Assembly (NCBI GenBank): GCA_951406725.2 | Contig: OX597824.1 | Coordinates: forward strand, 66,650,001 to 66,714,000 | Direction of reading: 5' to 3' | Length of the DNA: 64,000 bases | Source of the DNA: Octopus vulgaris | Lineage: Eukaryota | Part shown: piece by piece, positions 29,625 through 63,458 of the stretch | Layout of the letters: every line of letters begins with the position of its first letter | Position numbering within the stretch: position 1 is the first letter of the stretch | The notes under the pieces: generated by a model | Database searches by the model: none | Told to the model about the DNA's origin: nothing | What the model saw: only the letters and a program-made list of their open reading frames with translations | Translations under genes and position numbers: made by a program

Positions 29625-30330
29625 TTATGAATGCAACATTCCGGATACACACAATACGATAGAATCAGAGTGTATAAAGGAGCAAAAAGAAGATTCAAAC
29701 GGATTCTAAGAGATGACGAAAACTGCATATGTCCCCTACATCACAACAAGTTCTAGAATAGGTTGGAGAGGGACACTTGATATGATAACAAGAAGCTTCA
29801 CAGTGTAATGTTTGTTGACGCTACACCTAGGAACGAATTAAGTAGGGTATTTAAGAAAATCTTGTGTACAACTGGTCTTAAGATCAAAGTTATAGAAAAG
29901 ACAGGTAGGACTATCAAATCTGTTTTAAGTAAATCAAACCCATTTGATAGAATCTCGTGTCAGAATAATTGTGCAGTATATTCTACAAACCCACATATGA
30001 ACTGCAAAAAGAAAAACACTGTATACCAGATTAAGTGCCAAGAAGGGACTTGTGTGATTATCCTAGAGTCATGTATTGGAGAGACTTCTAGGAGCATCAA
30101 TGATAGGTTTAAAGAACACCTGGATAATTACATTGAAAAAAAAAAAAAAAACCAAACACCATCTTCTATCAGCATGTTGTAGACTGCCACAATGGTTTCT
30201 TAGGGAGACTTAGGTAAGACATCTTATCTACACATCTCACTGATGCAATGCTGAGACAAGTCACTGAAGCTGTCTGTATACAGGTATACAAATCCACCCA
30301 CAACCATAAATCAGAATGGGGTAACACCCA
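29625..30330 (+). mobile_element. Penelope-like element linker + GIY-YIG endonuclease relic
   Basis: MFVDATP...KVIEKTGRTIKSVLSKSNPF...C..C...VYQIKC...CIGETSRSINDRFKEH...AMLRQVTEAV...KSEWG. Confidence 0.85.
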
Positions 30331-36267: not shown

Positions 36268-36820
36268 TTATAAAAGGACGTAGAAAGTAAAAATCTCTTC
36301 GTTCGCAGATAAATTGGATATTCTAGTTGAAATTGCAGTTATGATACTATCTATTGTGGATTTCGGATGATTGGATGACACATTGATATATGCTATCGAT
36401 TTATTAGACTTATGAAAGGGATAATATAGACCGGTATTAAGACACAAGGTAACGTCCAAGAAGTTTACCACCCTAGAGTTACTGTCGTAGATGATATCAA
36501 GATTTAAAAAATCCTTCAAAAAGCTTCTCAACGACTTCTTTAATCTGTTTAATTCGGTCTTAGAGAGGCCCCGCACGGCAAAGAGGGCATCATCCCTATA
36601 TAATCCACCAGTAAAGTTAGGAAAGCTTTTCCTAACTTCCGAGAGTAGATACAAGCCAACCAAGTCAGTCACCTGCGCGGAATCTGATGACCCCATGGTA
36701 ATATCAAAGAAATTTTCTCAGTCGGCTCTTTGCCATTCACTCTCATTATAGGAGACAAGTGTTTCTCTTGCCGCTAAAATTACCTCTAAATCCGACTTAG
36801 GTATCTCAACAAACCTTCTT
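36268..36820 (-). mobile_element. Penelope-like element reverse transcriptase relic
   Basis: FDITMGSSDSAQVTDLVGLYLL...GLYRDDAL...VNFLDVTLCL...YINVSSNHP...ISTRISNLS. Confidence 0.92.
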
Positions 36821-42288: not shown

Positions 42289-42889
42289 TGCAAGCATACA
42301 TACTACTTAGACTCATACTACTTATACTTACAGTCATTCATACACATACAATATGGAATATTAATCTGTATGTATATATGCCTATGTATTTTACATGTAC
42401 ATATGTACATATGTATGTATATTTATCTGTGTGTGCATTTGGTGATTGTGCATTTGTTACCAGATCTGTAATTGATACACAATTAAAAATACACAGGTTT
42501 TTCACAGCATGTCAAGGTTTGGGACTCATTATAAATACATCAAAGACAAGCTTTCTTTCCACTTGAACTAGAAAGCAGCAGAAAGAACCCTATATTTCTA
42601 TAAATCAACATTAAAATGTCCGAAAATCTTTTTACTTATTTAGTATAAAAATTGGGAGATTTTATTGTGGTCTATAAAGAAAGCAACATATTAGAGCAGA
42701 AATCAAGAGCCATTTGTATAAATTGAGTTATGTGCTTGAGAGTCTGGAAGCAAATGTAACAAGAGCATAGTGGTCAAAAAATTAAAGCTTACACATTGGT
42801 AGTTGTACCAATACTACTATATTTCTCTGGATCCTGGATTAAAATCTGTTGGTACTATAAACAATTAGACAACATTCTTAGAAGAATTA

Positions 42890-44040
42890 TTTCGAACCTA
42901 GGTTCTCATTCCTAAGGTATTTTTCGATGTCATTATCATCATCAACATCACCATCATCATGATCATTCAGGTCACTGCCTGGAATCGAACTCAGAATCTT
43001 GAGGTTAGTAGCCCGTGTCTTAACCACTATGCTATATGCCCGTGGGCAATTATGTTGTGAATTTTAGGGCTTATAAATCTAATATTTTCCTATCCTTCTT
43101 TAATACCAGTTCCCATATGCTACTCATATCTGCACTAGGTCTGCTTAGGAGGTTATTATGTCCCAGCATGTGTGCTGTTTCTTTTAGTTTTTGTTCTCTG
43201 TCTATTATTTTAACTTCATCCCACAGGGGGAGGTGGTCTCTGTTTTTCCATACATGATCAACTATACCTAATTTATCAATATCTCCTCATGTCACAGCTT
43301 TGTGATGTTCCTCTACCCTTATTTTGAGTGGGTGGCATGTTTCACCTTTGTATAACGTACTACAGCTGCATGTGAAAGAGTACACACAGTCTTGGGTCAT
43401 ATTCTCTTCTATTGGTGGTTTTACTCAAAGGAGATATTTCCGAAGGGTTGTATTACTCTTGAATACTGTCCTGATGTCATATGGGCCGCTTATCTTTTGT
43501 AACTTTTCGGAGAGGCCTTTCACATAGGGTAGACAGACTATGCTCAGTTTATGGGTTTCTCTTCATAATTGGAGTGGATAATATGTTTTTGGGGTAGTTG
43601 TTGCTTCATAGATTGTTACTGAGCTTGATCATTTCTTTGTGGTGTGTATCAGGATTGCTACTTATATTCTTTGCTCAATGTTTTAGGCACTGAGCAATCC
43701 CTCCCTTTACACTTTATGGATGGTGGGAATTGAAGTTGAGGCATCGTCTAGTGAAGGTTGGCTTGTGGTATATAGATGTCCTGGATCCATACTTGGTACG
43801 TGTGATTAATATGTCCAGAAATGCTAGCTGATTGTCTTTTTCCTTTTCCATTGTGGACTGCATGGATGGCTTTATTGAGCTTACATGATCTAACAGTGCT
43901 TGGACATCTTCCTGGTGGAGCCAGAGTATAAAGGTGTCATCAACATATCGCAGCCATAGGGTTGGTTTTAGTGGTGTTGATCCTAAAGCCAAATTCTCAA
44001 AGTATTCCATGTATATATTGACTAATATTGATGATAATGG
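42890..44040 (-). mobile_element. Penelope-like element 3' half: RT + GIY-YIG followed by a tRNA-like terminal repeat
   Basis: PTLWLRYVDDTF...LAFLDILI...YHKPTFT..LNFNSHHP; CVYSFTCSCSTLYKGET...EEH; stop at 43071-43073, then tRNA-like head 43041-42970. Confidence 0.92.
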
Positions 44041-44585
44041 ACATCAGGACAGTATTCAAGAGTAATACAACACTTCGGAAATATCTCCTTCGAGTACATA
44101 CATACATACATACATATATACATACAAATATACCCTGTAGATGTTGAAATTCCAATAAAGGAGTTTTGGATCTAAGTTAGGAACTGGCTCTTTCTCTATT
44201 GGTAAGAAATCTTGAAATAAAATTGAATGACATGCACACACACACACACACACGCCTACACATAAATACACACACATGCACACACACAAATGCACACACA
44301 CGCACACACATATGCATGTATGTATAGCATCATCATCATCATCATCATCATCGTTATCGTAATCCTTGTCATTGTTTTAATATACTTTTTTCTTGATTTG
44401 ATTGAGTAGATGAGATTATGTTGAGACAACTGTTTCCAAGCAATGTAATAATTCCTTAATCTATCAAACAACAGATGTCTCTGATATTGTTGTGCAGAGA
44501 GCTGGAAATGAGTTTTTTATTTACAAAGATTGCACGACATGAAGATAAAGTACATACTCACACACAGCTGTACATACATACATAG

Positions 44586-46902: not shown

Positions 46903-49745
46903 TATGGATGATGCAAATAACCTTTTGATCTGCAATACCAACTTCAGGAAGCCAGCCAGCCACCTGATAAACTATCAATCAGGTGACTCTGCAAGCCAGA
47001 TCGATTTCCTTCTCCCCAGGCAGTGGGATTCATGGCTGCTCTTAAATACAAAGACCTTCCCTGGTGAAGAATGTACTACTCAGCATAGACTAGTGGTTAG
47101 TGACTTTAGACTTCAAGCCAGAAGGACCAATTTGGAAAAAAAGGATTTGGAAGCTTAAGGACCCTTCATATGGTCAGAGATTTAGGTTACATCCTAATTG
47201 AGATATTTGATGAGAGGGAGGAAGAGCTACAAACTTGTGACATAGAGGGCAAGTGGGAATTCCTGTGAGACAGCTTGCTGAGTGCCACAAACCAAATCTG
47301 TGGCTGGTGCAAAATCGCTTCCAGGATAATGTGGTGGTGGAACAATACTGTGGACAGGGCCATTAGAGCAAAGAAACAGGCCTGGAAGAGTGGGGGCAGC
47401 AGGGAACTGTATCAGATAGCCAGAAGGGGAGCCTGGAGACAGGTATATCTAGCAGAAAAGAAGAAGTTGGCCTATGTTCAGCATCACGAGGACCAAAGAA
47501 CTGAAGTATTTCGGATTGCAAGGCATTGTGTGAGAGAAAATTGTGATGCCACAGGAGAGATGATAGTGCACTTCTTTTTGATGAGTCTGCAAAGAAAGAG
47601 GCTTGGAGATGCCATTATGAAAGACTGCTGAATGTGGAGAATGAATGAGAGGAGGAGAGTCTACCAAATGTTGACCCAATTGAGGGACCAGCTACCCTGG
47701 TAGATAAAGCAATTAAGGATATGAAGATAGGGAAAGCCCCTGGCCCATCAAGAATCACTGCTGAAATGCTTAAAATATCTGGTAGTGTGGGTTATGGTCT
47801 AGTCACCCGTATTGTAAATCAGGTGGTTCATGAAGGAGTCATACCCAATGACTCACATAGCAGCACCATAGTCAACTGCTACAAAGGTATAGGTGATGCC
47901 TTAGAAATAATTACAGAGGTATCAAATTGTTGGATCAGGTGATTAAAGTTGTGGATAGTGTCATAGTCCAACTAATTAGGGAGAGAGTTAGTCTAGATAA
48001 GACGCAGTTTTGTTTTGTGACAGGTAGAAGCATTACTGATGTTATATTTCTGGTAAGACAACTGCAGGAGAAATACCTAGCCAAAGATAAACCTCTGTAA
48101 TTGGCTTTTGTTGACTGGAGAAAACTCTTGACAAAGTCCCCTGATCCCTTATCGGATGGGCAATGCAGAAACTAAGGATAGACAAGTGGTTGGTGAGAGC
48201 CATAAAAGCCTTGTACAGGGACGATACCAGTAAGGTGAGAGTGGGCAATGAGTACAGTGAAGAATTCAGGGTACAAGTAAGGGTTCACCAAGGATTGGTG
48301 CTCATCCCCCTCTTGTTCATCATAGTCCTCCAGGTAATAACAGAGGGATTCAAAACAGGCTGCCCCTGGGAGCTCCTCTATGCTGATAACCTGTTCTTAT
48401 AGCTGAATCACTACCAGAACTAGAGAAGTTACAGATGTGGAAGCAAGGTCTAGTATCAAAGGGCCTTACAGTTAACCTATCAAAAACCAAAGTTATAGAA
48501 AGTAGGAAGATAGACAAATCACAAATCTCTTCAGGTAGATGGCCCTGCTCAATCTGTAGAAAAGGTGTTGGTAGAAACTCCATAAAATGCACCCAATGTA
48601 AGCTTTGGATGCATAAAAGGTGCAGCAACATCAGAGGAAGGCTAACAGGGAAACTAACTTTTGTATGTGGAAGGTGCACAGGTACAATAAACACTGAAAA
48701 TGTGCAGAAAATAGACCCCATCAACTGCTAGGGGCACACACTAAAGGTAGTAGATAGCTTCCATTATCTAGGTGACCAAGTTAACAGTGGAGGTGGATGC
48801 ATCAAGAGTGTAGCTGTGGGAATAAGATTAGGCTGGGCAAAGTTCAGAGAGCTCCTATCACTGCTGGCAACAAAGGGCCTTTCCCTCAGAGTGAAAGCAG
48901 ATTGCTTGATGCCTGTGTGCTTACAGCTATGCTGCATGGCAGTGAAACAAGGGCTATGACAGCCGAGGATATGCATAGTCTTGAAAGAAATGAAGATAGT
49001 ATACTTTGCTGGATGTGCAATGTCAGTGTGCATGTTTGACAGTGTGTGAACATCTTGAGAGAAAAGTTAGACACAAGAGAAATCAGATGCAGTGTGCAAG
49101 AGAGTCAACTGCACTGGTATGATCATGTGATGTGTGTGGACGAGGGCAGCTGATCTTTAACTGTGGAAGGAACCTGTGGTAGAGGTAAATTCAAGAAAAC
49201 ATGGGATGGGATGGTGAAGTACAATCTTTGAACTTAGAGCCTCACAGATGCAATAACTGGTGACTGAGACCTTTAGCAATGTGCTGTGCTTGAGAGGACC
49301 TATGAGGCCAAGTGTATCCGTGCTTATGGCATGTAAGGAATATCTTTCGAATGTTGGTACTCACAGAGGCAAAGTGGCTGAGTTCCTTTTGAGCATTGAG
49401 CCTCATGGAGGCAATGATCAAGACATTTGGCATTATGTCGTGCTTGGGAAGAAGATCCATCAAGCTGAGCAAAAGTGCAATCGTAGCAGATACTGATACA
49501 CACAAATTGGCACCCATGCCAGTGACATGTAAACACACACTGGTGTCACACAGATGGCACCCATACTGGTGGCACATAAAAGCACCCATTACACTCTCAG
49601 AGTGGTTGGCATTAGGAAGGGCATCCAGCCGTAGAAATTCATGCCAAATGAGACTGGAGTCTGATGCAGCCTTCCAATGTGCCAACCCAGTCAAACTGTC
49701 CAACCCATGCTAGCGTGGACAATGGACGTTAAATGATGATGATGA
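46903..49745 (+). mobile_element. RTE-clade LINE (APE C-terminus, RT, PHD finger, 3' UTR, (GAT)n tail), decayed
   Basis: SQIDFLL...TQHRLVVSDF; GKAPGPS; VHQGLVLIPLLF; ELLYADNL; C4HC3 finger; many stops/frameshifts. Confidence 0.95.
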
Positions 49746-54164: not shown

Positions 54165-56895
54165 TCATCATCATCATCATCATTTAACATCCGTTTCCAT
54201 GCTAGAATGGGTTGGAAGGTTTGACTGAGGTCTGGGAAACCAGGAGGCTGCACCGGGCTCCAGTCTGATCTGGCAGTGTTTCTACAGCTGGATGCCCTTT
54301 CTAACACCAACCACTCCATGAGTGTAGTGGGTGCTTTTTACGTGCTGGCAACCGCCACGATTGGCTGGTGCTTTTTATGTGCCACTGGCATGGAAGCCAG
54401 TCAGGGTGGCACTGGCATCGGCCACATTCAGATGGTGTTTTTTAAATGCCACTGGCACAGGTATCACAACTACAATTTCCATTTGATCTTCATTTTGATG
54501 TTGATGTACTTGACTCAATAGGTCTCCTCAAGTACAGCAGATCGCCCTACAATCCAAGTTACTTTTGAATGAGTTGGGGCCGGTTATGCGAAACTGGTGT
54601 AGGATACAGCTGTGAACTCACTCTATTTGCCAGGTCTTCGCAGTCATAGCATATCTCCAGATATCTGTGAGGCCCAACGTTCGAAGGTCATGCTTGACCA
54701 CCCCATTCCATGTCTTCCTGGGTCTACCTCTACTCCGGATTCCTTCAACTGTTTGGGAGTGGCACTTCTCCTCACATCTCTCCTCATCCATCTATAGTAT
54801 ATGACCATACCAGTGCAAATGTCCCTCTTGAACGCCATATACTTTGCTTCTTACATGCTTCTTAAGTGTTCTCATGGCACTTACACTCTATCTTGTGTGC
54901 ACACTGAAATTACACATCCAGCGGATCATGCTAGCTTCATTTCTGATGAGCCAACGCATGTCCTCCACAGTCACGGCCCATATTTCACTGCCATGAAGCA
55001 TGGCAGTTCACACACATGCATTATACAATCTACCTTTCACTCTGAGCAAGAGGCCCTTTGTTACCAGTAGGGGTAGAAGCTTTCTAAACTTTGCCCAGGC
55101 TATTATTATTCTAGTGGTAACACTCTATGTATCCACCCCCACTACTAACTTGATCACCTAGGTAGCGAAGCTATCAACTACTTCTAGTTTCTCCTCCTGG
55201 AGTGTGATGGAATCTGTTTTCTGAGCATATGTGGTGTTTATTGCCCCTGTGCATCTGCTGCACATGAAAGCTATCTTCTCGGTTAATCTTTCTTTGATGT
55301 TGCTGCACCTCTTATGTGTCCATAGCTTACACTGGATACATCTTTCATTGGGTGCATTTTATGGAGTTTCTACCTACACCTTTTCTACACATTGAGCAAG
55401 GCCACCTACCTGAAGGGGTGTGTGATGTTTTCGCCTTCTTACTTACTAGAACTTTGCTCTTTGCTACATTGACTCTAAGGCCTTTTGATTCTAAACCTTC
55501 CTTCCACACCTGAAATTTCTTTTCTAGTTCTGGTAGTGATTCTGCTATGAGGGCCAGTTCATCAGCATAGAGGAGCTCCCAGGGGCAACCCATCTTGAAT
55601 TCCTCTGTTATTGCTTGGAGAACTATGATAAATAAAAGGGGACTGAGGGTTGAACTTTGGTGGCCCCTACTCCTACTTGGAATTCTTCACTATACCCATC
55701 GCCAATCCTAACCTTACTAACGGCCTCTCTGTATAGGGCCTATCCCCAGTTTCTGCACCGTCCACCAGATAAGGGATTGGGGGGACCCTGTCAAAGGCTT
55801 TCTCCAAGTCCACAAAAGCTACATATTTCTCCTGCCGTTGTTGAACCAGGAATGTGGCATCAGTGGTTCTTCTACCTGGCACAAAACCGAACTGCATCTC
55901 ATCTAAGTAGACTCTCTCCCTAATGAGATGGGCTATGACCCTCTCTGTGAGCTCTATCACTTGATCCAGCAGTTTGATACCCCTGTAGTTATTTCTATCT
56001 AGAGCATCACCTTTACCTTTGTAGCAGTTGACTATGGTGCTGCTATGCTAGTCATAGGGTATGGCTCCATCATGAACTACCTGGTTTACAATGCAGGTGA
56101 CTAGGCCATAACCTACACCACCAGATGTTTTAAGCATCTCAGCAGTGATTCCTGATGGGCCGGGAGATGCTCCTGACTTCATACCCTTAATTGCTTTATC
56201 TACAAGGGAACTGTCTATTCAGATAGCTGGGTCAACATTTGGCAGGCTCTCCTCCTCCCATTCATTCTCCACATTCAGCAGTCTTTCATAATGGCTTCTT
56301 CAAGCCTCTTTCTTTTCTGAATCATTAAAAGCAAGTGCACTGTCATCCATGCAGACACATTTCTCTCCTATGACGTCACAATTTTCTCTCACACACTGTC
56401 TTGCAATCTGGAATACTTCAGTTCTTTGGTTCTCATGTTGCTGGACATTGGCAAACTTCTTCTTTTCTGCTTCGCCCTTGGCTATGTATATCTGCTGCCC
56501 AGCCTCCCTTTTGACTACCCGGTACAGTTCTCTGCTACCCCCACCCTTACAGGCTTTCCAGGCCTGTTTCTTTGCTCTAATGGTTTTCTCTACTATACTA
56601 TTCCACAGTACATATTCAACTGCCACATAACTCTAGGTCTGGAAGGGACTTTGCACCATCCGCAGACTTAGTCTGTGGTGTCAGCAAGCTGTCCCGTAGG
56701 AATTTACAGCTACCTTCTAGGTCCAATGCCTGTAGCTCCTCCTCTCTTTCATCAAATTTCTTGATGAGGATGTCCCTAAATCTCTGACCATGTGAAGGGT
56801 ACTTTAACTTCCAAATCCTTCATTTTTGGATTGGTCTGCTTCTTGGTATCCTTCTGGCCTTGAGCCTAAAGTCACTAATGACTAGCCTATGCTGG
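54165..56895 (-). mobile_element. Second RTE-PHD LINE copy, opposite orientation
   Basis: MQFGFVPGRRTTDATF, FVDLEKAFDRVP, ELLYADEL, WPCSMCRKGVGRNSIKCTQ; (GAT)n tail near 54165. Confidence 0.95.
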
Positions 56896-58876: not shown

Positions 58877-59688
58877 ACATACCAAAAGAGCTACTAATAA
58901 TTTCCCGCTTTCATGATTCTTCTACTAGGTATATTTATAGAATACAATACTGGATAATTTCTGCTACCTTGGGAATAAATTAGTAGTGGAGGAGGATGTA
59001 CAGAGAGTGTGACAGCTAGAATAAGATTGAAATGGAGATAATTCAAAAAGCTTTTACCCTTGTTGGAAACCACTGGTTTCTCTCACTGAGTGAAAGGAAG
59101 ATTGTATGATGCATGTATAATAATAATAATAATAATAAATGCGCCCTTTTAAAGCCTAGTCAGGCTTATGGGCCCGGTTTCCCGGTTTCTATGGCATATG
59201 TGTTCCCCAGGTGGACGGGACGCCAGTCCATCGCAGCATTACTCATTTTTGCCAGCTGAGTCGACTGGAGCAACGTGAAATGAAGTGTTTTGCTTAAGAA
59301 TACAACAAGTCGCCTGGTCCAGGAATCAAAACCACAATCTTATGATCATGATGCTGACACCCTAACCACTAATCACTAATAGAGAAACACATTAGTTGGC
59401 TTATCAGCTTTAGGATATTAGAATGTTGTCTTATTTAAAATCCTAAAGCTGATAAACCAACTAATGTGTTTCTCCATTTTCTTATTTGTAATATAAATTA
59501 ATGGTGAAATATTTCTTTACCTACACCCATTTAATACAATAAGTGAGTTCATTGCATTGCAATTAAAAACACTTGTGTATTAATAATTTGGGTTGTATAC
59601 CAACAGTATATTGGATAAGTATTATCCCTTAGTGGGTTGGATCCACAACCCCTAACTTATTTGGTTTTATATATATATATAGATATAC

Positions 59689-60614: not shown

Positions 60615-61110
60615 AGAAATAGCATCCAAAACTTTTCCCAAACTACACTCTACCTGTGAAATAAAAGGTCACATTTGAAAATATAATCCAAGGAACATGA
60701 ATGCTGAAAAGAATGTGGTAACAAAACAATGGGTTTGCCTGCTGACAATAGTGGCCAAACCCTTTGTCTATCTACATTCTACCTTCATAATAAAAGGTCA
60801 CATTTGAAAATGTTGTCCAAGGTTCATTAATGCTGAAAAAATTGGAAACAAAAGAATGGCTTAACCTGTTAGAAATAGCAGCCAAAACTTTTGTCCAACT
60901 ACACTTCATCTTCCTAATAAAAGGTCACATTTGAAAATGTAGTCCAGAGTGCATTAAAACTGAAAAAAATGGAAACAAAAGAGTTGTTTGACCTGCTAGG
61001 AATAGCAACCAAAACGTTAGTCTAACTACAATCTATCTTCTTAAAATGTCACATTTGAAAATGTAGTCCAACGCTTTGTAAAAAAATAGGGAAAAAATGG
61101 CATGACTAGC
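60615..61110 (+). repeat. Diverged tandem repeat, ~127-bp unit, ~4 copies
   Basis: aaaaggtcacatttgaaaat at ~60663, 60792, 60919, 61044. Confidence 0.9.
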
Positions 61111-61119
61111 TAAAAATAC

Positions 61120-61266
61120 ATTAGTTATATTATTTACATTTGATGGATATTTGTCCTCATCTTGTTTGTTGTTAACACAATGTTTCAGCTGATATACCCA
61201 CCAGCCTTCATCAGGTGTCTTGCAGAAATTTTGAACCTGGGTCCTCATTCCTAAGGTATTTTTCAA

Positions 61267-61317
<51 letters not shown>

Positions 61318-61488
61318 CATTATTCAAGTCACTGTCTGGAATCAAACTCCTAATCTTGGGCTTAGTAGCCCACGCTCTTAACCACTACGCCATATGCCCA
61401 TGGGCACAGGCATATGGTGTAGTGGTTAAGAGCATGGGTTGCTAATCCCAAGATTCTGAGTTCAATTCCAGACAGTAACCTGAATAAA

Positions 61489-61546
<58 letters not shown>

Positions 61547-61700
61547 GTAATAATAACAACATCGAAAAATACCTTAGGAATGAGAACCCAGGTTTGAAAT
61601 TTCTCCAAGACACCTGATGAAGGCTGGAGGGTATATTAGCCGAAATGTTGTGTTAACAACAAGCAAGATGAGAACAAATATCCGTCAAATGTAAATAATG
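61120..61700. mobile_element. Head-to-head palindrome of PLE terminal repeat (tRNA-like head + (AAT)n + hammerhead on each arm)
   Basis: ~280-bp inverted arms centred on tgcccatgggca; homologous to 42890-43047. Confidence 0.9.
61609..61654 (+). ncRNA. Minimal type I hammerhead ribozyme (mirror copy 61174-61219 on minus)
   Basis: gacac-CTGATGA-a-ggctg gagggtatat tagcc-GAAA-tg-TT-gtgtt; both core boxes intact in both copies. Confidence 0.8.
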
Positions 61701-62362
61701 TACATAATTCCTCATCTCTTAAATATAGAATTGTATTAGCTAAAAATAGTAACCAAAACCATCATCACAAGCCAATGAGAGAGAATCTACATAGTCATTT
61801 GATCTGGTAAAAATAGCAGCAAAATCTTCCTCAAATCAAACACCCATTATCTCAGAAAAGAACTCATAGGATAAAATGTTTTGGGGGTTCTCTAAATATA
61901 GGGGGAAATGGGTTGATTGTCACTGGAATGCTTTTGATTACAGCTCTGGATAGTCAAGGCATGTCTGGGACTAGATAAGAACAGGAACAACACCATCTTC
62001 ACTAAACACAGTCATAAACAAAACTGTGACCACCATTACTACCACAACAATAAACAATACCATCACTCATTGATTATAATGATGATGGTGACTACCAACC
62101 CCCCACCACCCCCACTACAACCACTTCCATCATTAAAAATACCACTGTGACCACAACCACAACAACTTCCTTCACTTCCAGCTTCTCTTTCTTTTCCTTT
62201 GTCACATCCGTGAGTCTTTAGTTAACAAGAAGTCTTTATATATGGACTTTTCCGGAATCACACATTACACACATATATGTGCACATATATACACATGTTG
62301 TTAAACTATCTGTGAATGACTACATAAAATGTGAAAGAGAATTCCGAGAGCTGAGTGTGTAT

Positions 62363-63168: not shown

Positions 63169-63458
63169 GCAAGTACACATACACACACACATATATATGC
63201 ACCTGTGATATATACTCAAGCACATCAAAAGTGAAGCGGGAAAATGAAATTAAGAAATTTCAGTAAGATTTTGTTACTATTCTTGAAGAAGTTGTTGAGT
63301 TTGTTGTAATTTGTATTATTGTTGTTGTTATGGTTGTTGTTATAGTTGTTGCCTGTGAAGGTATGTGGCTTAGTGGTTAGGGTATTTGGTTCATGATTGT
63401 AAGGTTGAGAGTTCACTTCCTGGTGGTGTATTGTACCCTTGAGCAAGACACTTTATTT

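Follow-up and report, generated by a model that had tools for sequence, protein, structure and literature searches.

Does a palindromic cassette in which tRNA-like sequences are joined to hammerhead ribozymes represent a mobile element in its own right, or is it a product of a larger one? The question is raised by an insertion located near the right end of the window (the whole 64-kb stretch of octopus DNA analyzed here), which a first-pass annotation had interpreted as a non-autonomous hybrid of a SINE and a retrozyme.

The insert spans positions 61119-61736 and lies between two copies of a target-site duplication, identified by sequence at 61107-61118 and 61737-61748 (+ strand). The annotation had recognized this duplication but had taken it to be 9 bp long, while it actually measures 12 bp; the cassette had also been ended at 61700, short of the terminus of the right arm at about 61736. 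The left copy of the duplication is placed inside a 127-bp satellite, and excision of the insert in silico restored a 127-bp satellite unit. The satellite that received the insertion comprises 3.6 copies (60615-61118), with a weaker continuation at 61749-61830.

The palindromic character of the cassette was confirmed: the inverted repeat is formed by arms at 61120-61324 and 61504-61708, which are 205 nt long and 91% complementary. Each half of the insert is a 5′-truncated Penelope pLTR. The left arm (61119-61406, − strand) runs from head position −7 to a short 3′ end and contains (i) a tRNA-Arg-like head (61326-61399; A box 61392-61382, B box 61347-61338), (ii) an (AAT)n spacer (61269-61324), (iii) codons 1-43 of the RT/EN protein (61120-61248; tblastn and translation) and (iv) a minimal type-I hammerhead (61174-61219), whose stem III palindrome has been broken by CpG decay to AACAUU. 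The right arm (61405-61736, + strand) runs from head position −3 to a long 3′ "tail" extension. It carries the head at 61408-61480 (A box 61415-61425, B box 61460-61469), the spacer at 61483-61556, a start codon at 61580 followed by the first ~52 RT/EN codons, two of which are now stops (61580-61736; tblastn and translation), and a minimal type-I hammerhead (61609-61654) composed of stem I GACAC/GUGUU, CUGAUGA, an extra A, stem II, GAAA and AAUGUU, with the cut predicted after 61649.

The A boxes, B boxes and (AAT)n tracts were thus located on both arms, and CUGAUGA and GAAA are intact in both hammerheads, which differ as GAAA-TG versus GAAA-CA. The ancestral stem III that had been reconstructed from this difference, AACGUU, is indeed the majority form of the family. 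Arm-to-arm identity amounts to 63/75 in the head and 129/143 in the tail, and the differences are mostly transitions. The description of the cassette as "ORF-less" did not hold: translation of the right and left arms gives residues 1-54 and 1-43, respectively, of an RT protein whose reading frame includes the hammerhead (the tblastn match of the right arm covers 54 residues and runs 5 nt into the target duplication). The arms are joined through a 2-nt microhomology at 61405-61406, at the right edge of the native near-palindrome TGCCCATGGGCA (61395-61406, by sequence; head positions −7 to +4 of the left arm). This palindrome had been noticed before, but it belongs wholly to the left arm and its centre is not the fold-back point.

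ARAGORN detected no tRNA in the 64-kb window, and the 7 Rfam matches in 61100-61760 include no tRNA or hammerhead family; the calls of the tRNA head and the hammerhead therefore rest on manual and comparative evidence. The miRNA-family Rfam matches were rejected as hairpin and microsatellite artefacts. Elsewhere in the window, a near-perfect short inverted repeat (59384-59472) gave an Rfam mir-9 score below the gathering cut-off, and is possibly a MITE-like remnant.

In order to identify the source of the arms, the complete unit was rebuilt by walking upstream from longer copies in the host genome. It is organized as [tRNA head – (AAT)n – ATG – hammerhead – tail] – 835-aa ORF – [same repeat], and in the consensus the ORF is open over all 835 aa from the ATG, without splicing, its stop placed 29 nt before the tRNA head; some Penelope/Poseidon members contain a spliceosomal intron. 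The hammerhead overlaps the coding start, and both arms in the window encode the first 43-54 codons. The protein contains an RT domain (RVT_1 match, E 2.5e-10), and 52 longer homologues were found among the matches listed, nearly all sharing one Pfam set. Its C-terminus aligns with that of the Anolis PLE protein P0014 (E 3e-19), which we infer to be Poseidon_Ac. This C-terminus is of the GIY-YIG type, as judged from conserved Y/G/R/H/E and Cys/His columns; the Pfam GIY-YIG match is sub-threshold on the sister protein P0001 (E 0.23) and absent on a genomic fragment. In the tree, the tRNA-headed PLE is sister to P0001 (support 100/99; 55% identity), which conserves even the peptide encoded by the hammerhead itself.

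The head is linked to this ORF in the genome. Among 20 loci selected with a 5′ fragment of the ORF, 12 extend to the end of the ORF, and in 11 of the 12 the head follows, contrary to what was expected of a non-autonomous SINE/retrozyme lineage; a separate linkage of 30/30 was left out as a count, because its query already contained the head. A second copy of the element in the window (42889-44162, − strand; tblastn and sequence) likewise runs from ORF to head: residues 505-835 (44040-43074) are followed by the tRNA head (43044-42965) and by the start of the tail only, cut before the hammerhead, while an inverted ORF piece occupies 44040-44162. Contigs from four sequencing runs of unrecorded type, labelled as four organisms, cover 30/30 bins of the ORF plus repeat.

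The family thus has a single PLE-type RT ORF, a C-terminal endonuclease, pLTRs (in partial tandem with inverted 5′-truncated partners, as in L186-L191 and the head-to-head loci described below) and a minimal hammerhead, which are the features of Penelope/Poseidon elements. The arms of the cassette are almost certainly pLTRs of a Penelope element that belongs to the Poseidon clade and has an 835-aa ORF of the RT plus GIY-YIG type, in agreement with the Penelope origin, and mobilization by a Penelope RT, proposed in the first-pass annotation.

No DNA-bearing relatives of P0001 were found in a metagenome scan, and no other Poseidon family among the 40 of 150 host-genome matches examined, all of which were the tRNA-headed PLE. 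The window also contains fragments of other Penelope-like elements (36268-36717 and 29781-30182), the former from a different PLE clade whose relatives in the host genome include young copies with open frames of up to about 1,090 aa, as well as LINE-type reverse transcriptase fragments, RTE-like by eye (47269-47631 and 55673-56047). A tandem Penelope in a metagenome contig (L362:180-5525) is probably very young, since its units are 100% identical.

The head had been ascribed to tRNA-Ser(GCU) on the basis of its anticodon-like arm. Among the 12 tRNA classes compared (tRNA-Ile(AAT) was not one of them), the best match is the host tRNA-Arg(ACG), with 50/76 identical positions and a z of 8.4. We rejected an origin from tRNA-Ser(GCU): Ser(GCT) reached a z of only 4.6, and the GCT loop is peculiar to the right arm, since 3/121 heads have G in that column and the majority read ACT. 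The head carries canonical A and B boxes, as the tRNA-derived head of a tRNA-SINE does. The cloverleaf is decayed, with stems pairing at only 5/7, 3/4, 3/5 and 3/5 positions (acceptor pairs kept 5/7; T and anticodon stems 3/5 each), and in single-strand folding neither the cloverleaf nor the hammerhead emerged as a significant structure (head versus shuffles, z +1.04 and +0.11).

The head may derive from a tRNA-Arg gene or from a tRNA-SINE with an (AAT)n tail, which would have replaced the ancestral 3′ UTR; the A and B boxes would then have been retained while the cloverleaf decayed. In 1.48 Mb of mostly family-selected DNA we found no potential donor, i.e., no SINE in which this head is attached to a different body, and resident SINE heads score 56-59.5 against the PLE head versus 69 for tRNA-Arg(ACG). 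A pattern search for an A plus B box pair gave 0/12 positives among related ORFs followed by at least 400 nt of sequence. Ohshima and Okada are said to have reported in 1994 that the octopus OR1 and OR2 SINEs are of tRNA-Arg origin. Decayed heads of other, distinct tRNA-derived SINE families are present in the window at about 59322-59375 (−) and 63358-63440 (+), and the host genome contains tandem clusters of about 20 tRNA-Arg(ACG) motif matches (contig C2:211.89-211.91 Mb) and about 18 tRNA-Ser(GCT) motif matches (contig C3:70.85-70.90 Mb).

A likely role for the head is suggested by the 5′ ends of the copies. Of 50 arms reaching +3, 33 stop at −8 to +3; the stop rate per nt is 0.055 there and about 0.001 in the ORF, a difference of about 50 times. 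The pile-up is also found in arms not joined to an inverted head, where 28/43 stop at −10 to +5 versus 6.6% expected (P about 6e-23); in this set one probable duplicate was dropped and 29 tail-selected loci were added, and loci obtained with a head query were left out of the 5′-end statistics because they had been selected for full heads. The commonest single end is position 0, the +1 of the tRNA (11/48 ends in −10 to +5), and many ends extend to −2 to −7. Copy L186, of the full-length type, starts at the head. Among six copies reaching the 5′ repeat, one starts at the head, one enters an upstream ORF and four start in the spacer or tail.

A tRNA-type promoter starts transcription at precisely this head-start position. 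Since most copies begin exactly at the tRNA-derived stretch, the head is likely to be an RNA polymerase III start signal, as the annotation had suggested, and Pol III transcription from it is inferred here from sequence. We therefore favor, as the probable explanation of the locus, a single insertion that left two head-to-head, 5′-truncated pLTRs of a coding Poseidon-clade PLE, whose tRNA-Arg-like head likely serves as an internal Pol III promoter that sets the 5′ end of the RNA.

Such an insertion could proceed as follows. The protein would nick both target strands (by analogy with Anolis Poseidon; PMC11167929), and reverse transcription would be initiated at two internal positions shortly beyond the hammerhead, one producing a long-tailed and the other a short-tailed cDNA. 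Each cDNA would run toward the RNA 5′ end, and both cDNA ends would be joined by microhomology; a start in the 5′ repeat of a head-initiated RNA would yield exactly one arm. The hammerhead probably cleaves a fraction of the templates, without setting the DNA end.

Two further data sets bear on transcription. The usual Pol III stop, TTTT, is absent from the 2,642-nt consensus unit, as is GGGG. The absence of TTTT is borne out by a pile-up of 40 independent copies, in which coverage of the first kilobase is thin. The probability of this absence was 0.028 by codon shuffle, 0.0014 by composition and 0.068 by dinucleotide shuffle. TTTT is present in 16/16 copies of another PLE clade of the host genome and in 26/28 related metagenome ORFs. 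A headless Poseidon relative (L373:2320-4680 / L406), with a T-rich 3′ UTR that begins with (TTA)n, has an ORF that is TTTT-free over about 2 kb. We regard the absence of TTTT as a weak, sequence-based pointer to Pol III. In three unstranded RNA-seq runs from one study, the reads mirror genomic copy depth and 60-65% of the placed reads run on into unrelated sequence, a read-through-like signal; in these fragmented, unstranded data no pile-up of ends was seen at the head or the ribozyme.

The strongest competitor, which we nevertheless consider rather unlikely, is that the arms are an ordinary pLTR pair in which the tRNA-derived sequence rides along as a passenger left in the 3′ UTR by an old SINE or tRNA insertion, that the element is transcribed by Pol II or through read-through, and that the 5′ ends reflect RT stalling or switching at a hairpin, or trimming at ATT. 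The small native hairpin at −7 to +4 and an ATT motif at −9 to −7 could indeed bias ends toward the head start, a second junction hot spot of head-head joints is found at +14 to +18, and the PLE endonuclease has been described as preferring ATT (PMC11167929). The TTTT-free ORF of the headless relative and the RNA-seq signal, which is only read-through-like, point the same way. However, the pile-up persists in the 28/43 arms joined to flanks or inverted tails, ATT motifs and stronger structures elsewhere are not accompanied by a comparable peak, and a stall would be expected 3′ of the structure rather than 5′. Furthermore, the boxes are canonical although the stems are broken.

We judge it quite improbable that the head-start ends are produced when an extended Pol II transcript undergoes tRNA-type processing (RNase P cleavage at +1). 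Position 0 is the commonest end and 5/7 acceptor pairs remain, but the many ends at −2 to −7 lie upstream of such a cut, and the poorly paired T and anticodon stems, together with folding no better than that of shuffles, also speak against it.

With the head read as a probable Pol III start, the part played by the ribozyme can be considered. Its core and stems are conserved, as expected of the minimal, dimer-type hammerhead recognized in the first-pass annotation, and among the core positions N7 alone shows a frequent variant outside a CpG context (T/A 24/10). An in-frame 3-nt deletion, which removes the GUU directly before the cut (equivalent to 61647-61649), was identified in 30/282 arms, whereas other short deletions in the tail reach at most 4 counts at any one position; at matched ORF sites with 2-nt microhomology, deletions average 0.13%, with 7% at the highest single site. 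The deletion was discordant between the arms in 14/14 affected pairs. In contrast, the N7 variant is common to both arms of pairs (p 0.001). An inherited subfamily marker was rejected as the explanation of the deletion, since 0/14 affected pairs were concordant and no column was linked to it.

An RT jump across a cleaved template would yield exactly this GUU deletion, and judging from its position and distribution the deletion may record ribozyme cleavage in vivo; slippage at a structure junction is the alternative. A more far-reaching proposal, possible but tentative, is that a captured tRNA-Arg promoter drives synthesis of the whole 2.6-kb template RNA of this autonomous coding Penelope by RNA polymerase III, in which case the GUU deletion would be a record of in vivo cleavage by PLE minimal hammerheads. 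Uncapped Pol III RNA is translated poorly, and the protein may therefore come from other transcripts.

The abundance of the arms was estimated from a 28-nt hammerhead word, which has 5,771 exact matches in the 2.8-Gb host genome and is carried exactly by 19/85 ORF-selected arms; together these numbers give a rough estimate of some 26,000 arms. An unselected set of 88 contig C1 loci, for which an exact match to the hammerhead word was the sole criterion (two overlapping loci were dropped), contained arms on both strands, head to head, in 55 cases. The ORF was reached in 11/88 loci (two of the 11 may duplicate each other), and the remaining 77 had no ORF body. The 3′ ends group at two distances beyond the predicted cut, 53-59 nt (tail positions 145-151) and 84-90 nt (176-182), and a pair usually has an end of each type. 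The flanks of 20/46 pairs carry duplications of 9-13 bp, versus 0.5% in shuffled sequences, and a survey of the palindrome centres, proposed at the outset, revealed that the joints differ in position from locus to locus.

The count of ORF-less against ORF-linked copies, which had been proposed as a check, was thus 77 versus 11; the two classes have variants and age in common. In comparisons of 70 short with 39 and 67 ORF-linked arms no variant specific to short copies was found (lowest p values 0.024 in 69 tests and 0.018 in 92), and divergence was equal (about 4.5-5% at non-CpG positions, 0.6% in the youngest; the family is mostly old), which argues against a separate non-autonomous lineage. 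In addition, the sequence downstream of the head is the Penelope tail in 209/219 cases, with no recurring alternative body; this set is biased toward the tRNA-headed PLE. The palindromic cassette is an ordinary Penelope by-product, and head-to-head pairs, a known behavior of Penelope elements, are the norm for the tRNA-headed PLE. Other repeats frequently split the (AAT)n spacer (e.g., in L103, L325 and L098), which suggests that the spacer is a target for further insertions.

The ends also differ from those of a retrozyme, which is bounded by ribozyme cut sites: the 3′ ends lie 53-90 nt past the cut and the 5′ ends at the head. In Anolis Poseidon, reverse transcription has been described to start at two internal sites, the ORF start overlaps the hammerhead, and cleavage is dispensable for insertion (PMC11167929); taken together with the 3′ ends past the cut, this indicates that the ribozyme does not define the DNA end, contrary to the original proposal. 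An independent non-autonomous SINE/retrozyme with a ribozyme-set end and a borrowed Penelope RT is thus largely refuted and most improbable, for although 77/88 unselected loci lack an ORF body, and the short repeats hold promoter boxes, ribozyme and RT start region so that some could be re-copied, the head belongs to an ORF-bearing element whose protein N-terminus is encoded in the arms, no diagnostic variant or age gap sets the short copies apart, junctions vary by locus, the ends lie beyond the cut, and in the family-biased set of heads no other body recurs. The cassette is a member of Penelope/Poseidon; it fails as a SINE on independence and as a retrozyme on its ends.

Comparison with known systems defines what is new in this element. 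Anolis Poseidon PAc and the D. virilis Penelope have in common with it a pLTR-ORF-pLTR organization, RT with a C-terminal GIY-YIG-type domain and a hammerhead over the ORF start (PMC11167929, PMC2377424), as well as two 3′ ends that define a tail of 30-40 nt at one end, inverted 5′-truncated partners (PMC8557442) and a promoter expected in the pLTR. Unlike the pLTRs of those elements, as far as they are described in these reports, the octopus pLTR opens with a tRNA-Arg-derived A/B-box head and (AAT)n, and 5′ ends pile up there. The sole dissected Penelope promoter, that of D. virilis, is described as LINE-like, TATA-less and internal, with an intron, and the report leaves open how Penelope elements regenerate their promoter (PMC2377424). 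The minimal hammerheads of metazoan PLEs, described on opposite strands 100-700 bp apart, have the same architecture as those found here; the recurrent 3-nt deletion at the cut site is not mentioned in the available part of that report (PMC4209133).

The TRIMp3 elements (Cassandra, Helenus and Ajax) likewise carry a small-RNA-derived Pol III promoter in the terminal repeat, proposed to have arisen by SINE insertion, but they are short non-coding LTR elements, whereas the octopus repeat belongs to a coding Penelope; their autonomous partners, it is argued, must use Pol II (PMC10886601). In Schistosoma Sm-alpha and Sj-alpha, a tRNA-derived Pol III-type promoter is also placed beside a hammerhead, but these elements are non-coding and are liberated from multimers by the ribozyme, in contrast to the coding octopus unit, in which the ribozyme is not end-setting (PMC2770079, PMC6765202). 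Octopus tRNA-SINEs, among which OR2 is listed as a CORE SINE, share tRNA-derived heads in a probably similar host (PMC4758252). No Penelope with a tRNA-derived pLTR was found in the accessible text of the literature searched (including PMC13282606, PMC8967140, PMC4758252 and PMC5804259); repeat databases, supplements and most subscription papers were outside its scope, so a database entry may exist.

The palindromic pair behavior is already known, and the novelty of the locus is a tRNA-headed pLTR on a coding Penelope. In the passages available, the mobile elements described as having Pol III promoters are short and non-coding, namely SINEs and Cassandra, Helenus and Ajax (PMC10886601); a coding Penelope with a tRNA head at the transcript start would directly test the view that coding partners require Pol II, and the head bears on promoter regeneration in Penelope elements. 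The family also illustrates a route by which one autonomous element gives rise to both LINE-like and SINE-like copies, and the arms, roughly estimated at about 26,000, could for this reason be mis-annotated as SINEs. The cut-site deletion, for its part, would provide a genomic read-out of in vivo cutting by weak ribozymes. If the 2.6-kb RNA is indeed made by Pol III, this would explain why the unit is free of TTTT, how full-length copies keep their own promoter, and how tens of thousands of SINE-like copies could come from the 5′ end of the RNA of a coding Penelope.
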